The position numbers and the translations under genes are program-made. From contig JAYUVP010000091.1 of NCBI GenBank assembly GCA_043753995.1, positions 1 to 22,724 on the forward strand: a DNA stretch of 22,724 nt, read 5' to 3'. Positions 810 to 16,813 of the stretch are shown one piece after another. Positions within the stretch are counted from its first letter, which is position 1. Each line of letters opens with the position of its first letter. The DNA is from Fibrobacterota bacterium. Lineage in GTDB: Bacteria > Fibrobacterota > Fibrobacteria > UBA11236. The notes beneath the pieces were generated by a model, which was given only the letters and a program-made list of their open reading frames with translations, was not told where the DNA came from and searched no databases.

Positions 810-831
810 AGTTACTCCCTGGGGCGATAAT

Positions 832-1022: not shown

Positions 1023-1026
1023 GAAT

Positions 1027-1836: not shown

Positions 1837-1851
1837 CGATTCCTCGAGCCG

Positions 1852-2760
1852 TTAGGCGCTAATGCGGCTTTGGCGAATGCGCCAACGAAGCCAAATGGCG
1901 GTAAAATTGAGGGCGAAAGTCAGGATTAATAGGACCAAGGTCGTCGCATACTGAATGCCGAGAGTGCCCGTAACATCGGTGCTTTGGGTAGACATGATGA
2001 AGATGTGATAACCCAATTCCATGAATTGGTCGGTGAATTGAGTCGGAATATGCGGCAGAAAATAGGCCGCACCCGTGAAGAGAATGGGCGCGACTTCGCC
2101 TGCACCACGGCTCACGGCGAGAATGGCTCCGGTAAGTATGCCGCCTACGCAATTGGGCAAAACAACTTTTCGTACGGTTTGCCATTTGGTGGCGCCCAAT
2201 GCCATGGAGGCTTCGCGCAAATCACGGGGTACTTGTTTCAAAGCTTCTTCCACCGACACAATCACAACGGGTAAGGTGAGCAAGGCCATGGTGAGAGCCG
2301 CCCAGAGAATGGTCGGTTGGCCCCATAGCATGGCGCCACCATTGAAAACCTTGTCTATGCCCCCACCCAGGAATTGAATGAAAAAGCCCAAACCGAAAAG
2401 CCCAAAAACGATAGCGGGTATGCCTGCCAAGGTATTGACCGCGAAGCGCACGGCTTTAGCCAGCTTGGATTCACGGCTCACGTATTCGGTGAGGTAAATG
2501 GCGGTGATGGTGCCGAAAGGAACACCCACCAAGGACATGATCATGACAAGAAAAAATGTTCCGATGATGGCAGGAAAAATGCCGCCTTCGGTCATCCCGG
2601 CTTGGGGGGCCGCGGCGATGAAATTCCAAGTGAGATGATGTCTGCCTCCCCAAGCGATAGTGAGCATGAGCCAGGCGACCACACCCACGCAGGAGAAGGC
2701 ACAAGCGCCGGTGAGGAAATAAACCAATTTGCCGATAATGTCTTTGCGCTTCATGGCCAT
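1852..2760 (-). CDS. pstA: Phosphate ABC transporter permease PstA
   Basis: GGIFPAIIGT, AIYLTEY, LAGIPAIVFGLFG, EAA loop REASMALGATKWQT, RGAGEVAPI. Start is ATG 2760 (AAGGGA upstream) or TTG 2766, which overlaps the pstC stop. Confidence 0.95.
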   Translation of the reverse strand: MAMKRKDIIGKLVYFLTGACAFSCVGVVAWLMLTIAWGGRHHLTWNFIAAAPQAGMTEGGIFPAIIGTFFLVMIMSLVGVPFGTITAIYLTEYVSRESKLAKAVRFAVNTLAGIPAIVFGLFGLGFFIQFLGGGIDKVFNGGAMLWGQPTILWAALTMALLTLPVVIVSVEEALKQVPRDLREASMALGATKWQTVRKVVLPNCVGGILTGAILAVSRGAGEVAPILFTGAAYFLPHIPTQFTDQFMELGYHIFIMSTQSTDVTGTLGIQYATTLVLLILTFALNFTAIWLRWRIRQSRISA

Positions 2761-2762
2761 GC

Positions 2763-3911
2763 TCAAAGTCCCTTGAATTTTTTCATGAGGCGGTGGCGCA
2801 CGAAATACTCGGCGATGGCATTGAGGCCAAAGGAAACAGCGAATAGCACCGTGCCCAGGATGAACAGCATGCGATAATGCGGATCCCCGGTGACCACTTC
2901 GGCCATTTCAGCGCCAATGGTTGCGGAGAGGGTGCGCACCGATTCGAACAATTCCGGTGATATCATTGCAGCATTTCCCGTGGCCATAAGCACTATCATG
3001 GTTTCACCAAAGGCGCGACCGAAGCCCAGAATGACGGCGGCGAATACGCCTGGCGTTGCGGCAGGAAGCACGACGAAAAGTGCGGTTTCCCAAGAGCTGG
3101 CTCCTAGGGCTAAACTGGCGGCCGTGAGAGGCTTGGGTACAGCCGCGAGTGCGTCTTCCGAAACCGTGAAAATGATAGGGACAACGGCGATGGCCATAGC
3201 CACGCCACCCACAAATGCATTCAGGCGCGATTCATAACCAAAGAGAGATTGTAATAGGGAGGCGAGTACTACCAAGGCGAAAAACCCGATGACGACCGAA
3301 GGAAAACCAGCCAGAATTTCAATGGTCGGCTTCATGACCTCCTTGGCCCACTTCGGCGCGAAAGTGCTGGTATAAAGGGCGGCGAATATGCCCACCGGCG
3401 TTGCAAGGAGCAAGGCGATGAGGGTCACTTTCAAGCTACCAATGATAAGGGGTATGATTCCAAAACGCGGCTGCAGGGAAACCGGCTGCCATTCGAGGCC
3501 GAGAATGTGCTTGGCGTCGATTTTAGCATCGCTGGCTTCGGCTTCAAGCGCCAAATCGGCGCCCGCGGCGGAAACACCCGCGTCACCCTCGGCAGGCTCT
3601 TCTCCATAGCTTTCGGAGGCGCCAACCTCGGTGACTGTCTCGACGACCTTTACCTGGCCAAAGACGATGGGAGCGGCTTCGCGGAAAACGAAAAAGAAAA
3701 TCAGAATGATAATGGAAAGGCAAAGCAGGGCGACACCTTGAATGCCTCGCTCGACCAGCCATTCTCCAGCGCGAAACTTGGGCGTTAATGTCCACCCGGG
3801 ACGTTTGCTTGCATTGGGAATGGCTGGTGGATCGGGGCGTTTGGTGACTTTAAAAGTCCGAGGAACCGCTTTGGGGCGTTCGCTTTCATCCTGGGGAGCC
3901 AATAATTGCAT
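2763..3911 (-). CDS. pstC: Phosphate ABC transporter permease PstC
   Basis: FGIIPLIIGSL, EILAGFPSVVIGFF, ASLALGASSWET, GRAFGETMIVLMATGN, RTLSATIGAEM. Start uncertain: ATG 3911 has AGGA upstream, whereas the ORF-track TTG 3977 abuts a hairpin. Confidence 0.93.
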   Translation of the reverse strand: MQLLAPQDESERPKAVPRTFKVTKRPDPPAIPNASKRPGWTLTPKFRAGEWLVERGIQGVALLCLSIIILIFFFVFREAAPIVFGQVKVVETVTEVGASESYGEEPAEGDAGVSAAGADLALEAEASDAKIDAKHILGLEWQPVSLQPRFGIIPLIIGSLKVTLIALLLATPVGIFAALYTSTFAPKWAKEVMKPTIEILAGFPSVVIGFFALVVLASLLQSLFGYESRLNAFVGGVAMAIAVVPIIFTVSEDALAAVPKPLTAASLALGASSWETALFVVLPAATPGVFAAVILGFGRAFGETMIVLMATGNAAMISPELFESVRTLSATIGAEMAEVVTGDPHYRMLFILGTVLFAVSFGLNAIAEYFVRHRLMKKFKGL

Positions 3912-3980
3912 ATTCGGATTTCCTGGATTTTTTTCGGGCAGGGGCTCAGACACAGTGAAAGAAAAGGTAGGTGGCAAAGT

Positions 3981-4007
3981 GGGTGGCTCCGGTAAAGGAA
4001 GCCACCC
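3981..4007 (-). terminator. pstS-pstC intercistronic stem-loop (mRNA stabiliser or partial terminator)
   Basis: GGGTGGCT-CC-ggtaaa-GG-A-AGCCACCC inverted repeat 15 nt after the pstS stop, followed on the minus strand by pyrimidine-rich sequence. Confidence 0.7.
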
Positions 4008-4022
4008 AAGATTGTTTCAATT

Positions 4023-4847
4023 CTATTTCGCCGGGAAGTAGCCGACCTTGGTTACAATCCCTTGACCCTCTGGGGATAGGGTCCAGTCGATGTAGTTCTT
4101 GAGCGCGCCAGTGGGCTTGCTGCGCAGGTACATATACAGGTAGCGGGTGATAGGGTATTGGCCGCTTTTCACGGTTTCCGCTGAGGGCTCGAAGCCTTCG
4201 GTGGACGCGTCTTTTTTGACCTTGATGAAGCGTACGCCTTTGGCATAAGCCGCACCACCATAGCCGATGCCGAGTGCGTCCTTGGAGACGGCATTCACCA
4301 CGGCAGCCGTGCCGGGAAGGGTCTGGGCCGAAGCCACGAAATCCTTGCCTTTGAGCACGAAATCGCGAAAATAGACATAGGTTCCCGAATTATTTTCGCG
4401 GCTATAAACCACGATTTTTGAATCCGATCCGCCTACTTCTTTCCAATTGGTGATTTTACCGGTGTAGATATCCTTGATTTGATCCAAGGTTAATTCTTTG
4501 ACCGGATTGTTTTCCTGCACATAAACCGCGAGGCCATCCTTGGCGCTCTTGATTTCAATGCCCAAGGAATTGAAGCGCTGCTTGAGCTTTTCGCGTTCGG
4601 CGCCTTTCATGGGGCGGGACGCATTGCAGATGTCGGTGGTGCCGTTGATGAGAGCTGAAATGCCCGTGCCCGAACCTCCGCCAGTCACCTGAATGGTGGC
4701 GTCGGGGTGGGCAGCCATATAGGCCTCAGCCCAGCGCTGGGCCAGAATGACCATGGTATCCGAGCCTTTGACCGTGATGACGTCATTGGCGAAAGTAGCG
4801 GAGGCCGCAATGGCCGCTGCCATGAGTGTTGCGAACAATTTGTTCAT
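4023..4847 (-). CDS. pstS: Phosphate ABC transporter substrate-binding protein PstS
   Basis: Signal peptide MNKLFATLMAAAIAASATFA, then KGSDTM, VTGGGSGTGISALING, SRENNSGTY, YPITRYLYMY. AAGGA RBS before ATG 4847. Confidence 0.96.
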   Translation of the reverse strand: MNKLFATLMAAAIAASATFANDVITVKGSDTMVILAQRWAEAYMAAHPDATIQVTGGGSGTGISALINGTTDICNASRPMKGAEREKLKQRFNSLGIEIKSAKDGLAVYVQENNPVKELTLDQIKDIYTGKITNWKEVGGSDSKIVVYSRENNSGTYVYFRDFVLKGKDFVASAQTLPGTAAVVNAVSKDALGIGYGGAAYAKGVRFIKVKKDASTEGFEPSAETVKSGQYPITRYLYMYLRSKPTGALKNYIDWTLSPEGQGIVTKVGYFPAK

Positions 4848-4880
4848 CTTGTTTTTCCTTGTGAATATTTCTGGAGGCAA

Positions 4881-6320
4881 TTAAAACTTCACCTGCATGC
4901 GCAAGGTGAAAACATTGTCGCTAAGGTCTTTCGTAAATGGGACTAAGCCGCCCGTGGCTGCTGAATTGATCTCTTCATTGGTGACCATGTCGTAATAAGC
5001 CTGGAATTTCACCCATTCGTCCCAGTGATAAACGGCGCCAAATCCAATCGTGGAGTAGGCGATATCATTGGCGGTTAGGTTGGCGCGGGCTCCACGGCCA
5101 ATATCATTGCCGTCCACTTCGGTATTGGGGTCGTAAATATCGTAGCGACCGATAGCTTGGACTTTGGTGCCGAGGTTTTGCACGGCAGCGATATACCAGC
5201 CCGCCACTTCACGGTTAAATACGCCATTGGTGTCACCGGCATAAAACTGGGAATTGCTGCTGCCGCTGGGCTGATTGCCCCAGACATATTCACCGCGGAG
5301 TGAGAGTCCTCCGATAACAGGGATATCATAATAGAGCTGCATGTCGGCGCCCATGATATTGCGGTCGAAGGTGTCCAAACGCTTGGTGCCCGTCTTGGCT
5401 ATCCAAGCCACCGTATCACTGGTGCCACGTTTGCCAATGTCACTCACCTTGGTAGTGATATTAGTCACCTTTCCGCTATAAACGGAAAAGCCGCCGTCGA
5501 TGGCCAGGTTTATGTCATAAAAAGGCGCCGTGAATCCGAGACGACCGATATAATCCTTTTCATTGTCATTTTCAGTGCCGGTAGCGCCCATGCCGGTGAA
5601 AACGCCACCTTTGGCATTGAGGTATTGCAGGAAACCGAGTTGCTCGGTGCCCTTGAATTCGAGCTTGGCGCCTAAATCGCGTTCACCGGGAAATAAGGTT
5701 TGGAAAATCCGGGTGCGTTCAGGAAATTCACGCGCGCTGGAGCTATAGCTGATTTCAAAACCAAAGGGTCGATCGAAGACACCGGCGGTACCACTGAAAG
5801 CCTTCAACCAGGGTTCGGTGATGGTGGCATAGGCATCCTTGATGGAAACGCCGGAGGGTATGACGTCGATTTGCAAAACGTATTGGGTCAGGCCCGCATC
5901 ATAGGTGGTCTTGAGGCGACCACGGCGAATTTGAAAGCGCTCTTGGCTGGTTTCCAATGCAGGCCAACCACCGTTGGCCGTAGCCGGGCTTGTCGAGGTT
6001 GAGGTTTTATTGAAATTGCCTCCGGCTACCGTGCTGACACCAGGGGAATCAGCATATTGCCATTGGGCTTGGATGTAGCCCGAAACCTTGATTTTGGCGA
6101 GCTTATCGACCGTGGTTTTCACCTCGGCGAAGGCCTCTTCGCCGGATTTCAAAGTGGCCTCGATTTTGGAAGCTTCTTCTTCCACATGCGCAACCTTGGC
6201 TTCAACATGCGCGACCTTCGTTGCCAGAGCGTCGATCTTGGTGGAGTCGCTGGAGGGGCCGCCTTGGGCCAAGACGACAGCGGGGAGGGCTAGTAGGGCC
6301 GACCATGTATTGAGGTTCAT
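4881..6320 (-). CDS. Outer-membrane porin, probably phosphate-selective (OprO/OprP-like)
   Basis: Signal peptide (MNLNTWSALLALPAVVLA), coiled-coil N-region, KVSGYIQAQWQY, FQIRRGRLK, KDAYAT, FDRPFGFE...SSS, amphipathic beta strands and C-terminal Phe (LRMQVKF). First gene of the pst operon; AAGGAG RBS before ATG 6320. Confidence 0.82.
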   Translation of the reverse strand: MNLNTWSALLALPAVVLAQGGPSSDSTKIDALATKVAHVEAKVAHVEEEASKIEATLKSGEEAFAEVKTTVDKLAKIKVSGYIQAQWQYADSPGVSTVAGGNFNKTSTSTSPATANGGWPALETSQERFQIRRGRLKTTYDAGLTQYVLQIDVIPSGVSIKDAYATITEPWLKAFSGTAGVFDRPFGFEISYSSSAREFPERTRIFQTLFPGERDLGAKLEFKGTEQLGFLQYLNAKGGVFTGMGATGTENDNEKDYIGRLGFTAPFYDINLAIDGGFSVYSGKVTNITTKVSDIGKRGTSDTVAWIAKTGTKRLDTFDRNIMGADMQLYYDIPVIGGLSLRGEYVWGNQPSGSSNSQFYAGDTNGVFNREVAGWYIAAVQNLGTKVQAIGRYDIYDPNTEVDGNDIGRGARANLTANDIAYSTIGFGAVYHWDEWVKFQAYYDMVTNEEINSAATGGLVPFTKDLSDNVFTLRMQVKF

Positions 6321-6426
6321 AAGGGTTTCCTTCTCCTTGTTGCTCGATAGTTGAGGCGACGCATGCCGCCTCGGATTCGCGTTCGGATAAACCGTTTTCA
6401 CGACGGGGAGAAAGGTCGAAGCCGGA

Positions 6427-6455
6427 TGTTACAGGAGCGTTTCAAAGGCGTTTCC
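6427..6455 (-). promoter_or_regulatory. Pho-box-like direct repeat array upstream of the porin-pst operon
   Basis: Minus strand GGAAACG-cctt-TGAAACG-ctcc-TGTAACA: three heptamers at exact 11-bp period, about 105 bp upstream of the porin start. Confidence 0.7.
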
Positions 6456-6562
6456 ACGGCGGCACGAAGGCCAAAAAGGAAGGCGTGGCAAAGCGGAGTC
6501 GTTCAGGAAATCGACAGTCTATTCTGGACTACCCAAGACTATCACCGAATCCTTCCGGCTAC

Positions 6563-6591
6563 CGTATCATACACGTGACATTGTTGTTTCG
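6563..6591 (-). promoter_or_regulatory. Second Pho-box-like array in the divergent intergenic region
   Basis: Minus strand CGAAACA-acaa-TGTCACG-tgta-TGATACG at 11-bp period; the middle unit matches the E. coli TGTCA core. Confidence 0.5.
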
Positions 6592-6639
6592 ATTGTATTT
6601 CCAGGGTCGGGACGGCCCCTGAAGCGGCCAATGCCGGGG

Positions 6640-6645
6640 TATAAT
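6640..6645 (+). promoter_or_regulatory. Perfect sigma-70 -10 hexamer (TATAAT) 10 bp upstream of ATG 6656
   Basis: TATAAT in a GC-rich context, with no recognisable -35 and no Shine-Dalgarno before the ATG. Confidence 0.5.
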
Positions 6646-6655
6646 GGCTGCATAA

Positions 6656-9073
6656 ATGTTGCCTGGCTTATTGCGTCGCGGCCTGATTCTTACTGGAAAA
6701 CGGCACCTGATTCCCTTTCTCGACGGGCTCACCTATCTCGGCCGCCCAAGCCAAGTGCCCTTTCCCAGTGAACTCATCGAGCAGGGCTTGGCCATAGTTC
6801 TTTCGGGACTCAACAATACCCTGGCCATACAGAGCAATCCCGATTGGATTTGGCCTCATTGGGTGGAGAGGCAAATCGCCCCGGATGGCGATGAATTCAT
6901 ACCCACGGCCTTCAATCTCATCAAAAGCAATCTCACTTGTCGGAACTGGACTTCGCTTGGCGTTGAGGATAGCCCGCGCGAGGCGATGATTGATCCGGTG
7001 GGCATGATCACCTTGCGGCCCTATGGTTGGTCCGTTTTCCCCTATGTGCGCCTGCATGAGCGCGGCTGGTTCCCTCCCCGCATGCGCGATGGCGTGCGTC
7101 AAGAATTGCTCGAAGCCGTCTTGCCCGTGGTGGTGACCCATTATCGCACCTTGCCTTCGCTTCGCTGGCAAAGCGAAGCCGTGGCGCTTCGCCTGCAAGG
7201 CGAGGAGGCGCTTTCCTTCACGCATACTTTGGCCAATGCCAGCGATCGTCACTTAACCTTGCGCTTTGGGCTGGCTTTGCGTCCTTACAATCCACTCATG
7301 CTGGGCCATATCAATCGCATTCACTACGAGGCTCGTCATTGGCGCGTGAATGGCATGGAAGGGCTCACGCTCGACAGCGACCCTGATCGCGTAGTGGTTT
7401 CCGATCGGCATCACGGCGATCCTTTGGTGCGCGACGTGCTCATCGAAGGCCTACGGGCCTTGCGCTCGCGCTCGGGCATAGCCTGCGGCCTTTGCGAATG
7501 GAATATCGAATTGCCTCCTGGCGCGGAGCGCACCCTGCGCAGCGTGGCCTGGCTGGGCGAAAAGCCCGAATGCCCCGCGCCGCTTCGCAAGCAGGGATTG
7601 TCCGCGGCCGTGGTCAAGTCGCGTGAGGGCGCGCTTCATCGCTTGCGCGAAGTGCAAGAAGAGGGCCTTTGCCTCAAATTGCCGGAGCCCGTACTCGAAG
7701 AAGCCTTTGGCGCCATCAAGGGTCATCTGCATGTCTTTGATGACCGAGAACACTTTTCGCCCGGGACCTTTCTGTATCACCAGCCTTGGTTTCGCGACTC
7801 GGCCTATATCGCGGCGGCTTTTGATCATCTCGGCTGGTTCGCCCGCGTCGAGGAAAAAATCGGCCCCATGCTCAAGCGCCAGGATCGCAAAGGTTTTTTC
7901 CGCAGTCAAAATGGCGAATGGGACAGCAATGGCCAAGCCCTGTGGACCCTGGTGCAGCATGTGCGCCGCGGCGGCACTCCTGATCTGTTACCGCGGCTGC
8001 ATCCAGCCTTGATGCAAGGCGCCCACTGGATTACGCGCATGCGCGGGCAAAATCGAAAATCGCCTTCGCCGCATTATGGCTTATTGCCCTCGGGTTTTTC
8101 CGCCGAGCATTTCGGGCCCAATGATCATTATTACTGGGATAATTTCTGGGGCATTGCTGGCTTGGAAGCCGCGCTATGGTCGGCGCGGCGCTTGGATCGA
8201 AATCAAGACACGCAATGGCTACTCGAGGAAATCGAGGACTATCGCGGTGACTTACACGCCTCCCTTGAATTCAGCCTTCGCCGCACCGGCGGTCAAGGCC
8301 TGCCCTGCTCGCCTTATCGCGCCTTGGATACGGCGGCCATCGGCAATTTGGCGGCGGTATCGCCTCTCGGCATTTTGCCTGCCCACTCCGATTGGGTGCG
8401 CGGCACTTGCGATTGGCTATGGCAAAACAATTTGCGCCATGGCCTCTTCTTCCAGAAAATCGTGCACACCGGCTTGAATCCCTACTTGTCGGTGCAATTG
8501 GCGCGCGCCTTCATCGCCTTACGCGACGCACGCGGCTACGCCATATTAGAAGCGCTTTTGCATAAAGCCTCGCGTACCTGGACTTGGCCTGAGGCCTTGC
8601 ATCCCCGCACCCTCGGTGGATGCATGGGTGACGGAGATCACGGATGGTCCGCTGCGGAAACCTTGCAACTCATTCGTGGCTTGCTCATCGAAGATCATGC
8701 CGGAGCCATCACCCTCATGCCCGGCGCTCCCCGCGCCTGGTTTCGCCCTGGCATGGACCTTGAAATCAAGGATGCTCCGACCCTGCACGGCATGGTCAAT
8801 TTCAAAATCCACTGGAGCGCCCATCTTTGCGTGATGGAATGGAGCGTCCGGCGGGCTGCCCATCAAGACCCCGCCCCGCTTTATTTGCTCTTGCCTTCGG
8901 ATGTGGATTTGGCCTTGCCTTCCGATGCTATCCCCGAGGGTTCCCAAAAACGTTTGGAATTGAGTCTCCCCGCGGGCAAGCGGGTGATGACGCCAATGGC
9001 CGCCGAGGCCAATCTCACCGAAAGGATGCGCGACGCCGCCCGTTACCAGGCGCAGTCAAGCCAAGGACTATGA
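6656..9073 (+). CDS. Six-hairpin (alpha/alpha)6 glycosidase-like protein, family unassigned, probably cytoplasmic
   Basis: 805 aa. Motifs YHQPWFRDSAY, GEWDSNGQALW, YWDNFWGIAGL, TWPEALHP and GDGDHGWSAAE resemble GH15/GH63/GH78-like barrels; C-terminal beta domain (ITLMPGAP...APTLHGMVNF). No clear signal peptide. Confidence 0.62.
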   Translation: MLPGLLRRGLILTGKRHLIPFLDGLTYLGRPSQVPFPSELIEQGLAIVLSGLNNTLAIQSNPDWIWPHWVERQIAPDGDEFIPTAFNLIKSNLTCRNWTSLGVEDSPREAMIDPVGMITLRPYGWSVFPYVRLHERGWFPPRMRDGVRQELLEAVLPVVVTHYRTLPSLRWQSEAVALRLQGEEALSFTHTLANASDRHLTLRFGLALRPYNPLMLGHINRIHYEARHWRVNGMEGLTLDSDPDRVVVSDRHHGDPLVRDVLIEGLRALRSRSGIACGLCEWNIELPPGAERTLRSVAWLGEKPECPAPLRKQGLSAAVVKSREGALHRLREVQEEGLCLKLPEPVLEEAFGAIKGHLHVFDDREHFSPGTFLYHQPWFRDSAYIAAAFDHLGWFARVEEKIGPMLKRQDRKGFFRSQNGEWDSNGQALWTLVQHVRRGGTPDLLPRLHPALMQGAHWITRMRGQNRKSPSPHYGLLPSGFSAEHFGPNDHYYWDNFWGIAGLEAALWSARRLDRNQDTQWLLEEIEDYRGDLHASLEFSLRRTGGQGLPCSPYRALDTAAIGNLAAVSPLGILPAHSDWVRGTCDWLWQNNLRHGLFFQKIVHTGLNPYLSVQLARAFIALRDARGYAILEALLHKASRTWTWPEALHPRTLGGCMGDGDHGWSAAETLQLIRGLLIEDHAGAITLMPGAPRAWFRPGMDLEIKDAPTLHGMVNFKIHWSAHLCVMEWSVRRAAHQDPAPLYLLLPSDVDLALPSDAIPEGSQKRLELSLPAGKRVMTPMAAEANLTERMRDAARYQAQSSQGL

Positions 9074-11871
9074 AAAAACCAGAAGACCAAAACGAAGGAC
9101 ATGGGCGATTTCGCCGACAAGTGAATGCCGGCCTCAAACAAAAAGTCGCCGAGGCTCAAACGGTTGCTGGAGTTTCCGAAATCGGCGACGCAGATACCTT
9201 ACGCATCGATTTGCATTGCCATGATCACAATAGCGACGTGCCCGATGAAACATTGGGTCGCCTCTTGCGCTTGCCCGAGACGTGGCTGCCCACGGCCGAA
9301 TTGGGCAAGGTGCTGCGCGGCCATGGCACCGATGTTCTCACCGTCACCAATCACAATAATGCCCGTAGCTGCTGGGATTGGCTCGAACAGGGTGAAGACG
9401 TTTTGCCCGCCGCCGAATTCAGCGTGACCTTTCCCGATGTGGACATCGGCGTGCACGTACTCACTTTCGGCATCACCCAGGCGGATGAAGAGGCGTTGAA
9501 TAGTCGCCGGAAAGATGCCTATCGTTTTCTGGAGTATACCGCCGAGCGCGACCTTCCCACGTCCTTGGCTCATCCCCTGCATTTTTACAGCCCCAAGGGC
9601 ATGCCCTCGCAAGCCCTCATGGACCGCTTCGCCTTATGCTTCGAGCGCTTCGAAGGTGTGAATGGCCAGCGTGACGCCTGGCAAAATCTATTGACCATGG
9701 AATGGGTGCAAAGCCTCACCCCCGAGGCTCTTGATGCCATGGGCCGCCGCATCGGCATACGCCCCGACGCCTTTTGCCGCGATCCCTATCGCAAGCAAGT
9801 CACCGGCGGATCGGATTGCCACTTCGGAATATTCTCCGGCAGCACGGGCACCGCCCTGCGCGCTCCTGGCTGGCGCCAAGACCCCCGCAAGCCCTCGCAA
9901 ATCGCCTTGGAAGCCTTGCGTCGAGGCGAATTCGCTCCTTATGGCGCCTATTGCGGCGAAGAAAAATTGATGGCCGCCTTCCTCGAATTTTTCTGTAATG
10001 CTGCACTTCGCATGCAAGACCCGGGCCTCTTGCGCCTGCTGCTGCACCGGGGCGACCCGGGGGAGAAACTCCTGGGTTACGTGGTCGCCAACGGTTTTAT
10101 GGAATTAAAGCGCCACCGCATGACCTCGCGTTTTCTCGGGATTTTATGCGAGGGCTTTCGTGGCAAAAAGCCGGGGCTGCTGGCCTCGCTCATGGTGAGC
10201 AAGCCGTATCGCCCCATGTTGCAGGGCATCGAGGCCATCGCCAAGGCGCGCCAAGGCTCCGGCGAAAACATGGCCGCCACCTTGCGCGAAGTCTTGCCCG
10301 ATCTTTTCACGCAAATCTGGGGATTGCTGTGCCGACGCGTGAGCAATAAGGTCGAGAAGCATGAGAAGTCGGGAGCGGACTGGCCCTCGACCTCGGAATT
10401 GCTGGCCCGCGTTGAATTGCCGGTGCATTTTCGGGCCTTGGTCGGTGGCGCTCCTTCGTCGAGCCGCGACATGACGGGCGGCGACTTGGGCGATTGGATG
10501 GACGGCCTGCCCTTTCCCTTTCTCGCCTCGGTGGTGCTGGGCGGATCGGCGTTCGCCGCCAGCACGGTTTTGCATGACAAGCGACCTTTCGTTGATGCTT
10601 TCGCCGAAAGCCTTGGCAAGTGGAAGCATCCGCATCGGGCCTTATGGCTCAGCGATACTTTTTTTGATCGCAATGGCGTTTCCCATGTTTTGCAAGCGAC
10701 GCTCGCCGAAGCGCGCGAGCGCGGCCTGCCCTTGGATTTCCTTGCCTGCGACGAAGCTTTCGGAAAACCCCGCCCCGAAGACGGATCCCATTTGAAGCGC
10801 CTGCCCGTGGCCTCCGCCTTTTCCTTGCCTTTTTATCGGGAGCAACCGATTCGCTTGCCCGACGTCATGGCCGTGCACCGGGCTTTCGCCGAAGGCGGAT
10901 ACGATCGCGTCGTGTGCAGCACCGAAGCCCCCATGGGTTTGCTCGCCTTGTATTTGCGCGAGGCCTTTCATGTGCCCGCCTACTTTTACCTGCATACGGA
11001 CTGGCTCGATTTCGCCAAGCGCACTCTGGGTCTGGATAAGCCTAAGCTCGATCGTTTGCGCCGCTTCCTGCGCGCCTTCTATCGCCGCTTCGATGGCGTC
11101 TTCGTACTCAATACCGAGCAACGCGATTTTCTGATTTCGCCCGCCATGGGCTTGGATCCGGCCCGGGTGCATTTGACCGCGCATTGGGTCGATTCGTTGT
11201 ATCGCCCCGCCGTATTGAACAAGGGCGAAGTATTCGCAGGCGTGTCGGAAAATCAGAAAGTGCTGCTCTTCGCCGGAAGGCTTTCCTTTGAAAAGGGCCT
11301 GCGGGATTTGCCGCAAATCCTTGCGAAAGTTCGTGCACTAGTCCCCGAAGCGGTTTTGGCCGTCGCAGGAACGGGTCCCGCCGAAGCCTGGCTGCGCGAG
11401 GCCCTTCCTGATACCGTTTTTTTAGGCTGGCAGGACAAACCGGGCTTGGCACGGGCCTATGCCGCTGCCGACTTATTGGTTTTGCCCAGTTGGTTTGACA
11501 CTTTTTCTTGCGCCCTGTTAGAGGGGCTGAGCTGCGGCTTGCCTGCCGTGGCCTATGCCACCAAGGGCCCGGCCGACCTGATTCTCGATGGCGTCAATGG
11601 CTATCTCGCCCGCGATGTGGATCACATGGGCGACCTATGCGCTGATTATTTAGCGCATCCCGAACGTGCCGCGACCTTTCGTCGCGCTGCGGCTGAGCGT
11701 GGAGCGAATTTTGAAGCCGAACCCATACTTCAAAACCTGCTGACGGCCATGGGATTGCAAGGGGAAAGCGTCGCCGGTGCGACCTTGAGGGCCGCTAGAC
11801 CCACGCCTATGGAAAAACCCGATGCCGAAGAGGGTCTGCTGGCCGATTTGTTTTCCCTCGTGAGGGCTTAG
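9070..11871 (+). CDS. PHP-domain metallophosphoesterase fused to a GT4 (GT-B) glycosyltransferase
   Basis: 933 aa from ATG 9070 (ATGA overlap with the upstream stop, AAGGA RBS). PHP motifs IDLHCH, VTNHN, AAEFS, HVL, LAHP, FEGVNG, GGSDCH. GT4 motifs SDTFFDRNGV, STEAPMGL, YLHTDW, LFAGRLSFEKG, AYAAADLLVLPSWFDTFSCALLEGLSCGLP. Confidence 0.88.
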   Translation: MKKPEDQNEGHGRFRRQVNAGLKQKVAEAQTVAGVSEIGDADTLRIDLHCHDHNSDVPDETLGRLLRLPETWLPTAELGKVLRGHGTDVLTVTNHNNARSCWDWLEQGEDVLPAAEFSVTFPDVDIGVHVLTFGITQADEEALNSRRKDAYRFLEYTAERDLPTSLAHPLHFYSPKGMPSQALMDRFALCFERFEGVNGQRDAWQNLLTMEWVQSLTPEALDAMGRRIGIRPDAFCRDPYRKQVTGGSDCHFGIFSGSTGTALRAPGWRQDPRKPSQIALEALRRGEFAPYGAYCGEEKLMAAFLEFFCNAALRMQDPGLLRLLLHRGDPGEKLLGYVVANGFMELKRHRMTSRFLGILCEGFRGKKPGLLASLMVSKPYRPMLQGIEAIAKARQGSGENMAATLREVLPDLFTQIWGLLCRRVSNKVEKHEKSGADWPSTSELLARVELPVHFRALVGGAPSSSRDMTGGDLGDWMDGLPFPFLASVVLGGSAFAASTVLHDKRPFVDAFAESLGKWKHPHRALWLSDTFFDRNGVSHVLQATLAEARERGLPLDFLACDEAFGKPRPEDGSHLKRLPVASAFSLPFYREQPIRLPDVMAVHRAFAEGGYDRVVCSTEAPMGLLALYLREAFHVPAYFYLHTDWLDFAKRTLGLDKPKLDRLRRFLRAFYRRFDGVFVLNTEQRDFLISPAMGLDPARVHLTAHWVDSLYRPAVLNKGEVFAGVSENQKVLLFAGRLSFEKGLRDLPQILAKVRALVPEAVLAVAGTGPAEAWLREALPDTVFLGWQDKPGLARAYAAADLLVLPSWFDTFSCALLEGLSCGLPAVAYATKGPADLILDGVNGYLARDVDHMGDLCADYLAHPERAATFRRAAAERGANFEAEPILQNLLTAMGLQGESVAGATLRAARPTPMEKPDAEEGLLADLFSLVRA

Positions 11872-11893
11872 CACACCAGAGCCCTGGACTCCC

Positions 11894-11926
11894 GAGCGCG
11901 GAAAACTTTGACATTTCGCGCTCTTT
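11894..11926 (+). terminator. Probable intrinsic terminator after the glycosidase/PHP-GT4 pair
   Basis: GAGCGC(G)GAAA-actttgaca-TTTCGCGCTC stem followed by TTT, 22 nt after the stop; the U-tract is short. Confidence 0.5.
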
Positions 11927-12019
11927 CATGATTTGTGTGCACTCACCCATGGCGTTTTACGACAATGATTGGGTACCTTTGGTCGTTTTCATTGTGATTG
12001 TTCCTGGTGAGGAAGAAGC

Positions 12020-15000
12020 ATGGTTCGATTTGGGCTCGTTGGCGGCTCGCTTGCGTTGCTGTTTCTGGGTTGGCAATGCCCTGAAGCCGACCTCGTAGAT
12101 TTCGAGCCTCCCGCCTATGCGGTGGGACGCGTTCTGCAAGGCATGGACGGATGGACTCGGGCCGTTACCAATAATGGCGACTCCTCCCAATTCAAAGTGG
12201 AAAGCAATACCACCAGCGCTTATTTGCATGTTCAGCCCAAGGACACCTATGCCGTCAGCCGGATTTTTCGGCCTGCGGCTAGAGCCATTGAATTAAAGTG
12301 GCGATGGCGTTTTGATAGTATCCAGACCAATCAATTCTGCTTGGGCATTGGCACCGAAGCCGATACTATGGTCATGCGAGTCAAAATTTGCGTGTATCCG
12401 AACCAGAGCCTGCAGTATCAAACTGCTTCCGGCAGTATGCTCGGCATTCCGCACAGTATGACCTCGGCCACTTGGCATTATATGCGCCTCGTTGTCGACG
12501 GCAATCTAGGCTCTTGGTCTTTGTTTGCCAGCACCACGGTGGGCCGCGAAAAAGAACAAGCCCTACTGGGACCTATCGCCTTTCTATCGGTGGGCCCACT
12601 TCCGACTGCACAAAATATCCCGGTGCTTAGCCGATTGTTTTTGCGTCAAGAGGGCGACAATACGAGAAAGAATGTGGATCTCGACGATTTTGATTGGGCA
12701 CGGGCCGATTATAAACGCTGGGTAGGATTGGCTTTGGACAGCAATTGGAGTTCGTCCACCAATTGGAATCCGGTTGGCGTGCCTGAATCCACCGATGTGG
12801 TGCTTTTCCCCGCGGGGGTGACCCGGGGCATGATGCTGGATCGCCATGTCAGCGTGCAGGGCATTGTTGTGCAAAACGCCTATGCTGGCACCCTGAATTT
12901 CGATAACTTCATTCTCAATCTTACCGGCAATGGCGATTTCGCCGGCGGCAAATACCGATATCAAGCCGGAATTCTCCGCCTCAGTTCGCCTTCCACCCAA
13001 ATCCTTATTGGCCCAGTTGCCAATGCTGCGGATGTCGCCGCGGGATTGCCACCTGTGCGCCATGATGGAGCTGGCACCGTGCAATTGGCGGTCCGACCTT
13101 TGACCGTGAGAGGTTGGGAGCAAACCCACGGCAACTTGGATTTTAATGGCCAAGATTTGATTGTCAACGGCGATCTGAAGGTCAATGGAAGCCTGGGCAT
13201 AACCAAGGCGACCCCGTATGGCTTGATGCGGCTGGACGGTCGTAACATCAAGGTTTCGGGCAATGCCAGCTTTGAGGGTAGGGAGAACAATCTCATCGGG
13301 CTATTGGCAACCACCACCCCTTTCTCCCTGGCAGTCACAGGCAATTTGACGGCCAAGTATGCCTCCATAGGCCAATGCAAGGCCACGGTTTCGCGGGGCA
13401 TCGCCACTTATTCAGACAGTTTGAAAGGTGCGGAAAACTGGACCTTTAAACGCGCTCCCACGGTCAAAATTGTCCCCGACACCTTGGGTGTCTACCCCGG
13501 GCAAACTGCCACCTTTAACTCGGAAATCACCCATTTGGGCGACGGGACCTTGACTTGGTATGTGAATGACGCGGCCCAATCCTTGGCCAACAAAACCATC
13601 CATTTGATTGGCGTGACCCTGGCGGATCACAGCAAGCGTATTGTTTGCAAGGTGACCAATAGTACGGGAACGGCCACCTCGAATACGGCCCGGTTGAGCG
13701 TGAGCTTTCCTGCTCCGGTGCCTTCGACCCACGATCGCGAATTTTCAGGAACCCTGCAAGTGGGCTTTAATGCCCTAGTCGAAAACCCTCTTTTATTCGT
13801 TTCTCAGAATGACAGCCCCTTTGAGCGGATTACGGGTACGGTGACCTTGACCAAGGAAACCGAACTTCGCGTTTATGCTGTGCTCGGAAGCGATACTTCG
13901 GCCATGGGTCTCTATCGGTTTACTTCCACCGATATCCCAAAACTAGCCCGTCCTATTGCCACACCCAGAGGCCGCGAATTCCCGGATTCCATCACGGTCG
14001 CGCTGAAGTCCCCCGACAGCGCCGAAATGTTCTTCACCTTGGATGGCTCCAAGCCCACTGAAGCCTTGAAGCCTTATGCCCAACCCCTGATTCTGCGACA
14101 AACTGCTGAATTGACCGTCATCGCCACACGGAAGAGTTATCGGAGCAGCGACACCCTGCGCGAACTTTATTTGGACACTCTGGAATCGGTGCAGCCCCTT
14201 TTGGAAAAGCCTATAGCCCAACCTGCGGCTGGCGCGGTCGCCGACGGTACTTCAGTACGCTTCTCTTCGGGGCAGGCCTCAATTTGGTGGCGCAAGGTAG
14301 GAGGAGTTTGGACTTGGCAAATGGATAGCGCCTTGGTCATTCACCAAAATGACAGTGTCGAAGCGGTCGCGGTGCAAGGAACCAAACGCAGCGCCATCGC
14401 CAAATTCACCTACCTGCTGGAGTCGGGGCCGCGCGTCTCTCCCACTCCGGGAAAATTTCACGATAGTATTCAGGTCGAGCTTACCACTCGCGACGGTTCG
14501 AAGATATATGCGGACACCAATAAAGTGCCAACCCAGAATGGAACCCTGCCCTATAGTCAACCTTATAGGTTCTTCAATACCACGGTTTTACATGCTTTTT
14601 CCGTAAGCACAAGCGGAAAGGTGAGCGACATGCAAACCTGGGTCTATCAGTTGGAGCCCCAGATTCCGGTCGCCACACCTGGCGGCAATGCGCTGCAAGC
14701 CACGGGCAAGGTCACCCTCAGTACGCCCACTCGCTTAGCGAGTTTGTATTACACCTTGGATGGGCAAGACCCCACTCCCGGAAATTGGATCCCTTATTTT
14801 GGGCCGATTGCTATCACGAAGAGTTTGACTCTTAAGGCCGTGGCCGTGACGGGCAGAGACGATAACGAAATCAATAGCGCGGTGATGACCGAGCAATATC
14901 GCCTCACCGAAGATCCCAAGCAAACCGAAATTTTGCCGGGTCAACAAGGCGGATTGGCGGGCGAATTTCGTGTGGTCGTGGACGCCAAAGCGAAAGGGCC

Positions 15001-16813
15001 CATTGCCCTGGAGGCCGTGGATTTGCCTTCATATGTCGTTGGTTTTCAATTGCAAAGTTCGATTTTACAAATCAAGGGAATCTCGGGCGACAGCACGGTT
15101 ACTGTTCAGCCCACCAATGCGGCCCTCTCGAATGCGACGCTTTGGTTTCTCGCCGATGGCTTTCGCAAGCCAACCCGCATTGCTGGCGGCAGTCCTTTTT
15201 CCCCCGCTTCTGACGGAAAATATTTCTTTGGTAAAGACACCTTGCCTCCCGTGATACGCTTATCGGGCGAGACGATCAACGCCGATGGCTCAACGGCGGC
15301 GACTTTCACTCTCGATGACAATGCCGCGACTTTGGGCTATCAAGTCTATCGCAGCGATCTCATCGATAGCGTGGTGAAAGTGAAAGATACCGCCAATGCA
15401 ATCGTGATCAAGCTCAGTTTGAAAAACCCTCCAGGAGCCATCAAAATCCTCGGCGTGCGAGTTTGTGCCCAAGGACCTAGTCTATTGGATTCAACATGCT
15501 TGCCCAAATGCAAAACGGGGTGGTTTCCTGTGCGGCAACGCACCCAGGGTTTCACTACCGGACCCGTTTGGAAAGTGGGCTCGCATGTTACCGACAAATG
15601 GGATTTCGTGGGATTGCCCTTCCGTCTCGATACGAGCATTACGGTGGAGTCCTTGATTGGCGCCAATGACCGCTCCGACCTGACTTTGGCGCAATGGGAA
15701 CCATCAGGGAAAGACAGTCTGCGCTATTTGAACAAGCAAAATCACTTGGTGGAGGGCAAGGCCTATTGGGTTGCTTCTTCAAAAGCGCTCGAAAGCGTGA
15801 CCTTGGGTCAGGCCTCCTTATTGACTTCCGGGGATTCCGCCTTTCGTTTCACCCTCAAGGAGGGCTGGAATGCTATTGCCTCCAAGCTTTTAGATTCCTT
15901 GGCTTGGCCCATGAGCCGAAAAAAAGAATCGGATTATAAGAAATCAAAATTGAAGTCGCTTTGGGCTTATCATCCCGGGGACGAAGGCAATTGGGTGAAG
16001 ACCGAAGTTCTGGCTCCTTGGCGTGGCTATTTCGTTTATTGGAAGGGGCCCCTGGACACCGTCGTCGATCTCGACCGAGCGACACCCTCGATGGCCGGTA
16101 TGGCAGCCAAGGCCGCAGCAGTGGACAAAGAGGACTGGGTCTTGGGTATGTCCCAGGATCGCTCTGAAGTCGAGCTAGGAGCGTTTGACGGCGCTTCCGA
16201 GGCATTTGGCATTGAGGATGAACCCGCCTTGCTTTCCCGCAGCAAAAAGGCGACGCAATTAGCGGCGTTGAGAAAAAACCTTGCTTTAAGCTCCGATTTT
16301 CAGGGCCTTGCCCACCAAGGCCTGTTGCGTTGGACCGTGGGTTGGCGAAGCGGATCGAAGTCCGATTTGAAATTGGTTAGACGGCAATTGCCTTCCGGCT
16401 ATGGTGTGGCGGCCTTTTCCCCCAAACGCGGCCTCGCTTTTGATTTGGATGCCAATCCCGTCCTGGCGGCGACACCTCTGGGGTTTGAAGACACTCTGCA
16501 AATCATTGTCGGCAAGGTGGAGGAAGTCCAGGCTGCTTTGGCGCAATGGCCTCAGCAGGTGCAAATTGAAAGTGCCAGATTGCAGGGCCGTCATCTCAGC
16601 CTGCGCCTCCTGGGTAACCGATATGTGACCCTGGAGGCGCTGGATGCCCAGGGTCGACTTTTGGGAAGGGAACAAGCCTGGTGGCCCGCGGGCCAATATC
16701 AATGGTCTTTGTCGCAATTAACACAAGGTCGCCGGGGCTTGGTTTGGCTGCGACTTCGTTTGGAAGGCGAGGGTAAACGCGTACAGAAGGCGTTTTTATT
16801 GCCTCTTCCTTGA
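12020..16813 (+). CDS. Large secreted or surface multidomain protein (Ig-like domain, about five chitobiase/beta-hexosaminidase-C (Fn3-associated)-like repeats, possible C-terminal sorting domain)
   Basis: 1597 aa with GAGG RBS and hydrophobic N-terminal signal. Contains a WVG...NWSSSTNWNPVGVP..TDVVLF motif, an Ig motif (LTWYVN...IVCKVTNSTGT), repeats such as PIATPRG...FFTLDGSKPT...Y..P and LYYTLDGQDPT, LKEGWNAI, and a C-terminal LDAQGRLL...AGQYQW...GLVWLRL. Confidence 0.75.
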   Translation: MVRFGLVGGSLALLFLGWQCPEADLVDFEPPAYAVGRVLQGMDGWTRAVTNNGDSSQFKVESNTTSAYLHVQPKDTYAVSRIFRPAARAIELKWRWRFDSIQTNQFCLGIGTEADTMVMRVKICVYPNQSLQYQTASGSMLGIPHSMTSATWHYMRLVVDGNLGSWSLFASTTVGREKEQALLGPIAFLSVGPLPTAQNIPVLSRLFLRQEGDNTRKNVDLDDFDWARADYKRWVGLALDSNWSSSTNWNPVGVPESTDVVLFPAGVTRGMMLDRHVSVQGIVVQNAYAGTLNFDNFILNLTGNGDFAGGKYRYQAGILRLSSPSTQILIGPVANAADVAAGLPPVRHDGAGTVQLAVRPLTVRGWEQTHGNLDFNGQDLIVNGDLKVNGSLGITKATPYGLMRLDGRNIKVSGNASFEGRENNLIGLLATTTPFSLAVTGNLTAKYASIGQCKATVSRGIATYSDSLKGAENWTFKRAPTVKIVPDTLGVYPGQTATFNSEITHLGDGTLTWYVNDAAQSLANKTIHLIGVTLADHSKRIVCKVTNSTGTATSNTARLSVSFPAPVPSTHDREFSGTLQVGFNALVENPLLFVSQNDSPFERITGTVTLTKETELRVYAVLGSDTSAMGLYRFTSTDIPKLARPIATPRGREFPDSITVALKSPDSAEMFFTLDGSKPTEALKPYAQPLILRQTAELTVIATRKSYRSSDTLRELYLDTLESVQPLLEKPIAQPAAGAVADGTSVRFSSGQASIWWRKVGGVWTWQMDSALVIHQNDSVEAVAVQGTKRSAIAKFTYLLESGPRVSPTPGKFHDSIQVELTTRDGSKIYADTNKVPTQNGTLPYSQPYRFFNTTVLHAFSVSTSGKVSDMQTWVYQLEPQIPVATPGGNALQATGKVTLSTPTRLASLYYTLDGQDPTPGNWIPYFGPIAITKSLTLKAVAVTGRDDNEINSAVMTEQYRLTEDPKQTEILPGQQGGLAGEFRVVVDAKAKGPIALEAVDLPSYVVGFQLQSSILQIKGISGDSTVTVQPTNAALSNATLWFLADGFRKPTRIAGGSPFSPASDGKYFFGKDTLPPVIRLSGETINADGSTAATFTLDDNAATLGYQVYRSDLIDSVVKVKDTANAIVIKLSLKNPPGAIKILGVRVCAQGPSLLDSTCLPKCKTGWFPVRQRTQGFTTGPVWKVGSHVTDKWDFVGLPFRLDTSITVESLIGANDRSDLTLAQWEPSGKDSLRYLNKQNHLVEGKAYWVASSKALESVTLGQASLLTSGDSAFRFTLKEGWNAIASKLLDSLAWPMSRKKESDYKKSKLKSLWAYHPGDEGNWVKTEVLAPWRGYFVYWKGPLDTVVDLDRATPSMAGMAAKAAAVDKEDWVLGMSQDRSEVELGAFDGASEAFGIEDEPALLSRSKKATQLAALRKNLALSSDFQGLAHQGLLRWTVGWRSGSKSDLKLVRRQLPSGYGVAAFSPKRGLAFDLDANPVLAATPLGFEDTLQIIVGKVEEVQAALAQWPQQVQIESARLQGRHLSLRLLGNRYVTLEALDAQGRLLGREQAWWPAGQYQWSLSQLTQGRRGLVWLRLRLEGEGKRVQKAFLLPLP

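Follow-up and report, generated by a model that had tools for sequence, protein, structure and literature searches.

PMC4796936 and PMC8231724 describe a phosphoesterase and a family 4 glycosyltransferase (GT4) expressed under phosphate limitation, the PlcP-Agt system of Alphaproteobacteria and SAR11, and part of PMC5193443 treats Agt and OlsF. The present report concerns a two-gene module on contig JAYUVP010000091.1 (assembly GCA_043753995.1) of an uncultured sediment member of the Fibrobacteria. The window, meaning the whole stretch of DNA analysed, is the entire 22.7-kb contig (22,724 nucleotides), one of 356 in a genome of 5.2 Mb. Gene 1 encodes a protein of glycoside hydrolase (GH) fold, and gene 2, which overlaps it, encodes a PHP-type phosphoesterase fused to a GT4 domain. 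The module looks like an undescribed counterpart of the phosphoesterase-plus-GT4 type of phosphate-starvation system. PlcP, however, is a calcineurin-type metallophosphoesterase encoded by a separate gene, whereas the phosphoesterase of gene 2 is PHP-type and fused. PlcP-Agt is not known to have a glycosidase partner.

Soluble glycosides provide a further comparison, since the best profile and structural relative of the gene 2 GT4 domain is the sucrose-phosphate synthase (SPS) of T. elongatus (6kih). SPS and its phosphatase (SPP) likewise pair a synthase with a phosphatase, often in one fused protein. Gene 2 is unlike SPS/SPP in that its phosphatase is of the PHP rather than the HAD class and lies at the N-terminus, in the insertion of a 220-aa helical domain, and in an identity of 19%; SPS, unlike gene 2, is not known to be tied to the phosphate-starvation (Pho) response. 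In the methylmannose-polysaccharide genes of M. hassiacum an (alpha/alpha)6 hydrolase, MmpH, stands beside a GT4 enzyme, ManT, as a gene pair for a cytoplasmic glycan. That system differs from the present one: the pair described here is without methyltransferases, the PHP domain is absent there, and its proteins are only mid-ranked among the structural matches.

Organization of the locus

The features on which the argument turns are these, in window positions:

6656-9073, + strand: gene 1, an open reading frame (ORF) for an 805-aa GH15-like (alpha/alpha)6 protein without a family
9070-11871, + strand: gene 2, an ORF for a 933-aa PHP / helical / GT4 fusion
11894-11923, + strand: hairpin with a 10-bp stem and a 10-nt loop, then U-rich CUUUCAUGAUUU
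120-4880, - strand: phoU, pstB, pstA, pstC and pstS (Pfam), divergent from gene 1
4881-6320, - strand: porin-like outer-membrane protein (OMP), first gene of the divergent pst operon (operon span 120-6320)

The overlap of the two genes by ATGA, claimed in the original prediction, can be read directly: the gene 2 ATG stands at 9070 and the gene 1 TGA at 9071-9073. The genes are coupled, and the three predicted activities that had been placed in one transcript are all encoded: a GH-fold enzyme whose catalytic residues are conserved, together with PHP phosphoesterase and GT4 domains. Also as predicted, the pair has an intergenic region in common with a divergent operon (porin-like OMP, pstS, pstC, pstA, pstB and phoU by Pfam), and a hairpin lies 3' of gene 2 at 11894-11923, where the region has a folding z-score of -1.95 and 9 of 200 shuffles fold as well. 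This hairpin is likely a modest terminator; a consensus terminator scan did not list it because the loop limit of that scan is 8.

Conservation of the pair

Gene 1 homologues were confirmed in 241 stretches among species-representative genomes, and 80 of the 241 were surveyed (loci numbered L below). Fifty-three of these 80 loci, with a gene 1 homologue of at least 40% identity, make up the main clade, and the other 27, at 32-38%, the paralogue clade. A PHP-GT4 gene lies directly downstream on the same strand in 51 of the 52 informative main-clade loci, so that the pair, whose conservation had been left to a neighbourhood survey, proves to be kept; its carriers belong to Fibrobacteria, Acidobacteriota, Nitrospirota and Gammaproteobacteria. 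The exceptions are L018, which ends too early to show gene 2, and the Spirochaete metagenome-assembled genome L027, which is without it. For 45 loci the distance between the stop of gene 1 and the first in-frame ATG of gene 2 was taken; it is between -8 and +27 nt in 23 of them, and nine repeat the -4 overlap; the remaining distances reflect a crude start-codon rule. Within the class, a gene 1 homologue was found in 28 of 41 sampled genomes, a tally that takes in the unpublished genome G021. Homologues also occur in cultured bacteria, among them Ectothiorhodospiraceae bacterium BW-2, Nitrincola nitratireducens, Paraglaciecola aquimarina and Psychromonas; a number of these copies are short and maybe fragments.

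The two clades coexist in single genomes, among them many related genomes and this one. The partner of the paralogue clade, where present, is a stand-alone GT4 gene overlapping the stop codon (nine loci), and six of these nine partners match the starch-synthase N-terminal motif PF08323; GH13 genes lie beside the homologue in two Spirochaete loci of this clade. Because the paralogue clade has stand-alone GT4 partners, the GH-like protein and GT4 would form an old core, and the PHP fusion would mark the main clade.

Several observations concern the paralogue clade itself. The paralogue of this genome, C236:7157-9475 on the - strand (L095), codes for 772 aa at 33% identity; it has no GT4 gene beside it and lies between an NnrS gene and a small ORF. 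At L072:13488-15929 and L080:14178-16688 the GH-like/GT4 pair is followed by genes for a VTT/DedA protein and an 813-836-aa fusion in which a type I phosphodiesterase (NPP) domain is joined to an EEP domain, so that the core is kept and the phosphoesterase attached to it is another one. Further neighbours are DUF374 (L048, L052), GDSL lipases (L042, L045), FadL (L042) and carbamoyltransferases.

Linkage to phosphate genes

With strict thresholds and a distance of up to 10 kb, pst genes accompany 11 of the 51 pair loci (plus L018), as against none of the 27 paralogue loci. The linkage spans Fibrobacteria, Acidobacteriota/Holophagae and Magnetobacteriaceae, and takes at least six arrangements:

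L005, L007, L009, L056: divergent porin-pst as in the window
L003, L019: divergent porin-pst, 5.8 kb away
L038: phoR-pstB-phoU-pstCA with a divergent alkaline phosphatase gene
L051: pstSCAB-phoU followed by CHAD, same strand
L063: convergent pstAB-phoU downstream
L079: pstCA 8 kb upstream
L040: divergent pstS

The pair loci are kin, so that the 11 linkages are not independent events; at least six arrangements across three groups nevertheless appear hard to ascribe to chance. A Pfam run on 73 neighbours from 25 main-clade pair loci plus L027 gave other phosphate-type genes: ppk1 in L031, one in L041 for a Na/Pi cotransporter that carries a PhoU domain, and one in L035, directly downstream, for a metallophosphoesterase; an OlsF-like bifunctional acyltransferase is encoded 2 kb from the pair in L057. 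It had been held that a pair unconserved in relatives, or conserved without phosphate genes nearby, would speak against the idea. The pair is kept, its linkage to pst, ppk, phoA and CHAD recurs, and by that test the idea is not refuted.

Hexamer arrays and the putative promoter of gene 1

The sites relevant to regulation, with the candidate regulator genes, are the following:

6428-6455, + strand: array 1, GTTACA-N5-GTTTCA-N5-GTTTCC, proximal to the porin-pst operon
6564-6602, + strand: array 2, GTATCA / GTGACA / GTTTCG / ATTTCC repeated every 11 bp, 54-92 nt ahead of the ATG of gene 1
6640-6645, + strand: TATAAT, a -10-like hexamer lacking a -35 match; spacing 37 nt from array 2 and 10 nt to the ATG
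16870-16908, no strand assigned: four hexamers, inverted 2+2, GTTTCA-N5-GTTACG / TGTAAC-N5-TGAAAC, 83 nt upstream of the phoB-like gene
16991-17728, + strand: phoB-like response regulator; best NCBIfam PhoB, 206 and 202 bits, below equivalog cut-offs
17730-19541, + strand: phoR/pnpS-like kinase; best NCBIfam PnpS/PhoR, 275 and 249 bits, below equivalog cut-offs

Two Pho-box-like arrays had been reported in the intergenic region, and both are present, as 11-bp-spaced hexamers of the GTTWCA type. Under a strict rule (three repeats, at most one mismatch in each and at most two in all) the 5.2-Mb genome contains two arrays, at 6428 and at C101:873, and five shuffles contain 0, 0, 1, 0 and 0. The motif alone is weak evidence, and its strength would come from position and conservation. 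Across loci, three 11-bp-spaced GTTWC[AC] hexamers with at most one mismatch each were sought, "upstream" being taken as within 450 bp of gene 1 homologues. Such arrays match 20 times in 32.6 kb upstream of gene 1 homologues as compared with 18 times in the other 1.23 Mb, an enrichment of about 42-fold; all 20 are on the strand of gene 1, and they occupy the same place in 10 loci plus the window. They precede gene 1 also where pst is not nearby (L002, L008, L010, L014) or is 5.8 kb off (L001, L019). Five of the 18 arrays found elsewhere lie directly upstream of a porin gene, and + strand arrays precede the porin gene in L001, L005, L007 and L019, as well as in L006, L018 and L056. More distant Fibrobacteria have GTTGCR/GTTYCA arrays at the equivalent place.

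The hexamers at 16870-16908 look like a putative autoregulation site, and the phoB-like and phoR-like genes that follow (16991-19541) encode the candidate regulator of the arrays. Repeats of the type that such a regulator would bind are thus common, in silico, to the promoters of gene 1, porin-pst and phoB. A phosphate link of the pair accordingly draws on two independent lines, synteny and hexamer arrays, and is well supported, because the arrays are shared with the pst and phoB promoters and because linkage to pst, ppk, phoA and CHAD recurs in several phyla.

A sigma-70 scan of 6250-12100 returned no full promoter. A -10 hexamer without a -35 would fit an activator-dependent promoter with a very short leader, and in relatives a conserved TTGTTTATACT stands about 35-50 nt after the arrays, a spacing that matches the one between array 2 and TATAAT. 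In L003, L004, L007, L008, L018 and L056 some 90 nt separate TTGTTTATACT from the gene 1 ATG, and this interval holds a conserved leader, GTGGACAGAATRGGGAAA ... AAGGAWAWCCGGG ... GCAATTCCCGACCCGG. The window (6646-6655) is without that leader, its TATAAT lying 10 nt from the ATG; the leader of the relatives may have a regulatory role, and its loss in the window would leave a near-leaderless mRNA.

Elsewhere in the genome the sole other strong arrays are C290:2470-2507 (L082, four repeats) and C101:846-873 (L083). Each lies just upstream of a gene for an exported CarboxypepD_reg-domain protein; the two proteins are paralogues, and one of the genes follows that of a calcineurin-type metallophosphoesterase; the two CarboxypepD_reg genes are candidates, by their upstream sequence, for further membership of the Pho regulon. 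An array at C56:19937 lies inside a chemoreceptor gene and was taken as chance. About 10 kb downstream of gene 1, L003:20428 and L007:20384 share a conserved hexamer array (GTTTCACGGCTGTTGCC...GGTTAGC).

The PHP-GT4 fusion

Gene 2 is divided as follows:

9196-9942, + strand: PHP-type phosphoesterase domain, aa 43-291, with invariant metal-ligand motifs
9955-10614, + strand: helical middle domain, aa 296-515, from the gene 2 model
10639-11748, + strand: GT4 (GT-B) domain, aa 524-893, with PF13692 and PF00534 above cut-offs

The earlier designation of gene 2 as PHP-GT4 is borne out by motifs, Pfam and structure matches, and its structural model, with a predicted template-modelling score (pTM) of 0.85, has three parts, PHP, helical and GT4. 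Residues H49, H51, D52, H95, E116, H129, H168, D249 and H251 are invariant in 21 sequences; the PHP ligands HxH(D), H, E, H, H and DxH fall on successive strands, in a strand order that agrees with the model. Sixteen of the 21 members match NF038032 (PHP-type CehA/McbA metallohydrolase; score 25.5 bits, cut-off 80) and six match NF041577 (PHP-type pAp phosphatase), in every case below cut-off. The nearest Atlas clusters of the PHP domain carry PHP_C, and some database fragments of gene 2 relatives are named "PHP domain-containing" or "TrpH". Searched against the PDB, the PHP domain profile had PsfC as its sole match (E 0.19, over the GGSDxH motif), while a structure search with the whole protein was filled by GT4 matches; Pfam gave no match to PF00149, the calcineurin-type family. 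From these motifs aa 43-291 is predicted to be a divergent PHP phosphoesterase, either a mono- or a diesterase, with an intact trinuclear site.

The helical domain, for which the Atlas gave no usable match, contains a disordered loop (440-477) and an uncharged hydrophobic 22-residue helix (479-502) with a Kyte-Doolittle value of 1.65 and a borderline membrane-segment score. The GT4 domain is matched in Pfam by PF13692 (82.7 bits), PF00534 (78.7 bits) and PF13439 (53.4 bits), with E 4e-23. Its closest solved relative is 6kih (profile E 2.9e-19; Z 37.5, root-mean-square deviation (rmsd) 2.9, 367 residues aligned), followed by BshA 6n1x (Z 35.5); the GT4 enzymes PglA, PimB' and PimA, which act on lipids or lipid-linked substrates, reach Z 32.4 at most, GlgM 6tvp Z 30.9 and glycogen synthases Z 27-30. 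The SPS equivalogs are far below cut-off (TIGR02472, 17.9 bits against 576; TIGR02470, 22.1 bits against 810), and the match to the monoglucosyl-diacylglycerol synthase model NF049988 is weak (E 0.0027). The C-terminal domain of GT4 enzymes has an E-x7-E motif; in gene 2 its candidate counterpart D810-x7-E818 is invariant at both positions, the first carboxylate being Asp.

Because the proteins of gene 1 and gene 2 are both without a signal peptide, they should, on sequence grounds, act in the cytoplasm or at the inner membrane face. No fusion longer than 1634 aa was found, a weak negative; 80 shorter PHP-helical matches were mostly cut at contig ends. The gene 2 homologue at L056:12411-15206 has an in-frame stop at codon 63, a Trp codon in the ETWLPT of the window, and is either a sequencing error or a pseudogene.

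The GH15-like protein

As a single sequence, gene 1 has no match in Pfam at E up to 10, none in NCBIfam and none in the PDB, and its profile reaches the PDB only at E 0.16-2.9, including the GH63-like TTHA0978 at E 1.1. An AlphaFold2 (AF2) model built from 25 sequences (pTM 0.87) shows a beta-sandwich (about aa 100-300), an (alpha/alpha)6 barrel (about 340-680) and a second beta-sandwich (about 700-780), so that the six-hairpin fold proposed from sequence stands, by the model and by structure searches alike. Foldseek placed GH94 phosphorylases first (E 3.5e-18, TM-score 0.56-0.58). A second search, independent of Foldseek, put first the dextran dextrinase 9ju0 of GH15 (Z 29.2 over 560 aligned residues, rmsd 4.3), then the glucoamylase 1lf6 (Z 28.4) and the GH65 glucosidase 7fe3 (Z 28.2), with many further six-hairpin families at Z 20-27. 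The modelled fold can be regarded as certain, and no one family stands out, because Foldseek favours GH94 and the other search GH15 and GH65.

An N-terminal beta-sandwich together with the (alpha/alpha)6 barrel is common to gene 1 and the GH15 enzymes 1lf6 (a bacterial glucoamylase), 1ulv (glucodextranase) and 9ju0, at Z 28-29 and with some 550 residues matched. A profile-profile alignment (hhalign) of gene 1 to eight canonical GH15 proteins encoded by relatives, at a probability of 15%, places WFRD (378-381) on the W-x-R-D motif, W494-D495 on the W-E of the general acid, and E646 on the base Glu. These residues are invariant in 25 sequences and in 14 sequences across both clades, as are E421, D423, E484, D490, D659 and H662 across both clades. 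D495 and E646 are thus candidates, by alignment, for the general acid and the general base. Gene 1 is nevertheless unlike GH15 in having no PF00723 match, Asp instead of Glu as the acid, a further beta-sandwich at the C-terminus, of the kind seen in GH65 and GH94, a strongly conserved 95-residue N-terminal extension, and a GT4 partner in every case. A genome-wide search for PF00723 found nothing in this genome, and the family is present in 8 of 41 genomes of relatives.

The four-part architecture of GH94/GH65 phosphorylases (chitobiose phosphorylase 1v7v, cellobiose phosphorylase) also matches that of gene 1, at only 10-13% sequence identity. The general acid of GH94 is Asp. Phosphorylases of GH94 and GH65 have no catalytic base and have a phosphate-binding site instead, and gene 1, as judged through the GH15 alignment, has E646 where phosphorylases bind phosphate. 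Since the invariant E646 would fill the base position, a phosphorylase was judged less likely and kept as a minor possibility only; gene 1 is read as a predicted active, inverting GH15-like alpha-glycosidase or transglycosidase.

Sequence conservation in gene 1 is among its highest over the first 95 residues, where model confidence is low; this stretch may mark an interaction surface. Complex prediction for residues 96-805 of gene 1 and the helical domain (residues 293-520) of gene 2 gave no verdict, at a score of 0.00, the omitted N-terminal 95 residues possibly being the interface. In databases, a word-indexed search gave 636 matches to gene 1, of which the 120 listed are without a Pfam domain and are named "hypothetical" or "uncharacterized" or unnamed, and the gene 1 profile collected 969 clusters at 50% identity with E at most 1e-30 and 3809 with E at most 0.001.

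Proposed pathway and rival explanations

The account preferred here, plausible though not one to be held with confidence, is that the pair makes a cytoplasmic alpha-glycoside from a phosphorylated acceptor and releases inorganic phosphate (Pi). The two-gene operon would belong to the Pho response, a PhoB-type regulator binding the GTTWCA hexamers that recur every 11 bp ahead of gene 1 (the binding and its sign are both presumed) and acting on a promoter that has a -10 hexamer and no -35. The GT4 domain of gene 2 would move a sugar from a nucleotide sugar to the acceptor in alpha-linkage, as a retaining enzyme, and the PHP domain, at its trinuclear metal site, would presumably then remove a phosphate ester from the same molecule. 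The acceptor may be a phosphorylated small metabolite of the cytoplasm, such as a sugar phosphate, and the logic would be that of SPS and its phosphatase, or of GlgM. By such steps the fusion would make a neutral alpha-glycoside or short alpha-glycan out of phosphorylated carbon and return Pi to the starved cell; gene 1 (candidate acid D495, candidate base E646) would trim or cleave the alpha-glycoside, perhaps the product of the GT4 domain, and recover the sugar. As retaining enzymes, members of GT4 form alpha-linkages; alpha-glycosidases of the GH15 type invert and cleave soluble alpha-glucosides; and synthase-phosphatase fusions are the rule in soluble glycoside pathways such as SPS/SPP. 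A GT4 alpha-linkage and a GH15-type alpha-glycosidase fit a build-and-break pair, and a soluble alpha-glycoside would have the best support at the level of the enzymes, in the SPS/BshA-like GT4, the GH15 type of gene 1, the PF08323 matches (6 of 9) and the GH13 neighbours. Among the conjugates first suggested, a wall polymer is the least likely. A switch of wall or exopolysaccharide of the teichuronic-acid kind was rejected as the main reading: signal peptides are lacking, and genes for a flippase or for export are not recurrent neighbours of the pair.

Several points weigh against a soluble glycoside made under Pho control. The hexamer orientation, the motif counts under loose rules and the 40 pair loci without a pst gene, all given below, count here too. 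A synthase translated together with an enzyme that hydrolyses its product would seem to make a futile cycle, barring regulation of one of the two. How GT4 folds rank is no reliable guide to acceptors, and the hhalign comparison of gene 1 with GH15 has only its low probability, with E 0.0017, yet is collinear over 393 columns. Gene 2 has no match to PF02811, the Pfam PHP model, and PHP_C appears only at E 0.21, while the NCBIfam matches to PHP families all fall short of their cut-offs. The arrays end about 37 nt before the -10 hexamer, and the pho boxes of E. coli sit closer to the -10 than array 2 does. No Pho regulon is known to include a soluble-glycoside synthase, the common precedent being synthesis of phosphorus-free lipid, and several loci of the paralogue clade have neighbours of lipid type.

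Renovation of lipids by a route like PlcP-Agt and non-homologous to it is an explanation that is possible but doubtful. The PHP domain would then work on the inner leaflet of the membrane as a phospholipase-C-like phosphodiesterase, or as a phosphatase of phosphatidate, lipid A or core. Addition of a sugar by the GT4 domain to the hydroxyl of the freed diacylglycerol, or to a lipid-linked one, would give a phosphorus-free alpha-glycolipid, which gene 1 would trim or transglycosylate in the manner of SFR2 or GBA2. A phosphoesterase with a GT4 enzyme under Pho control is the PlcP-Agt layout, the best physiological precedent (PMC4796936, PMC8231724, PMC5193443). The domain order, PHP then GT4, suits the order of such reactions, gene 2 has the uncharged helix 479-502, and an OlsF-like acyltransferase lies near the pair in L057, while the paralogue clade contributes DUF374, VTT/DedA with the NPP+EEP phosphodiesterase, GDSL lipases and FadL; GH116 enzymes of the glucosylceramidase type have the fold of gene 1. 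The neighbours of lipid type nevertheless belong to a paralogue clade that coexists with the main clade and perhaps has another role. Moreover the GT4 domain is nearer to the soluble-acceptor enzymes SPS (Z 37.5) and BshA (Z 35.5) than to PglA, PimA, PimB' and DGD2 (Z 28-32), its match to a monoglucosyl-diacylglycerol synthase has an E of only 0.0027, and no transmembrane segment is clearly predicted in gene 2. No PHP enzyme is known to be a phospholipase C, nor is a glycosidase known from any lipid-renovation operon, and gene 1 is left unexplained. A cytoplasmic alpha-glycan or oligosaccharide, after the style of glycogen, methylglucose lipopolysaccharide (MGLP) or methylmannose polysaccharide, is unlikely. 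There GT4 would polymerise, gene 1 would trim or generate primers, and PHP would dephosphorylate a primer or phospho-glycan, the whole serving as a carbon sink under Pi limitation. Both M. hassiacum MmpH (7qsj, Z 25.1) and the mannosyltransferase (7qsg, Z 26.9) are among the structural matches, as are GlgM and the glycogen synthases at the Z values given above; glycogen operons generally combine enzymes that build with enzymes that break, and the core of both clades is GH-like plus GT4, often without a phosphoesterase. These structural matches are mid-ranked, however, no gene for a branching enzyme, methyltransferase or nucleotide-sugar pyrophosphorylase recurs beside the pair, and a simple polymerase would leave the invariant PHP fusion unexplained.

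It is distinctly unlikely that the operon stands outside Pho control, with the arrays binding another regulator of the OmpR family or being elements of promoter architecture, and with the closeness to pst being historical. Under looser rules the motif counts equal those of shuffled sequence (31 in the genome, 20-38 in shuffles; for pairs, 8 against a mean of 8.15), 40 of the 51 pair loci are without a pst gene in the surrounding DNA examined, and the regulator and kinase score below the PhoB/PhoR equivalog cut-offs. The hexamers, furthermore, point towards gene 1 and away from the porin gene, so that their orientation relative to transcription is opposite at the two promoters. Against this, the motif also stands ahead of pst and phoB, its position and strand are kept in 10 related loci, and the linkage to pst, ppk1, phoA, CHAD and Na/Pi genes recurs in several phyla and gene orders and in none of the 27 paralogue loci.

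Novelty and significance

No description of the pair was found in the literature searched, in which few subscription journals were covered, and the family libraries consulted do not contain the combination of a GH15-like protein with PHP-GT4, behind an apparent Pho box and kept across phyla. Each of the two proteins belongs, as a divergent member, to a known superfamily. Joining PHP to GT4 suggests substrate channelling between dephosphorylation and glycosylation, and the fusion could represent a new route for sparing or recovering phosphorus, or a new synthase/phosphatase pair for a glycoside. If the substrate were a membrane lipid or lipid-linked glycan, this would be a second, non-homologous bacterial route of lipid renovation with a built-in glycosidase or transglycosidase, common to Fibrobacterota, Acidobacteriota, Nitrospirota and Gammaproteobacteria. 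The large family that gene 1 represents has its catalytic residues intact, lacks a family model and is possibly a new one of the CAZy type. Pho regulons are poorly mapped outside a few model phyla, and the operon is a conserved candidate member across phyla. The larger proposal is offered with some scepticism: that two undescribed families, the GH15-like clade (about 1000 clusters at 50% identity, no Pfam model) and PHP-helical-GT4, may constitute phosphate-starvation machinery of wide distribution, which would replace a phosphate ester by an alpha-linked sugar on one substrate and then edit the product. It is directly testable because homologues occur in cultured bacteria.

Neighbouring genes

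The remaining features of the window lie downstream of the pair:

12020-16813, + strand: lipoprotein-like protein of 1597 aa, containing CHB_HEX_C_1/Fn3_assoc repeats; its gene separates gene 2 from phoBR
19545-20030, + strand: DinB gene (Pfam)
from 20410, + strand: urea-type ABC transporter genes (Pfam)

The porin-like protein at the head of the divergent operon has 479 aa and is exported, with a signal peptide, an N-terminal coiled coil, a beta-rich body and a C-terminal Phe; it has no Pfam family. Its start is more likely the ATG at 6320 than the GTG at 6401, judging from sequence, because the Shine-Dalgarno element GGAGAAGG lies upstream of the former. The gene is kept ahead of pstS in 10 related loci, and the protein is probably an analogue of a phosphate porin. 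The 1597-aa protein has a 29%-identical homologue at the same place in L012:4919-9256, there too followed by a phoB homologue, and may be another phosphate-related surface protein. Among sequencing runs, none of RNA is listed as containing the locus itself, which was found in two sediment-metagenome DNA runs of one study, perhaps its source.

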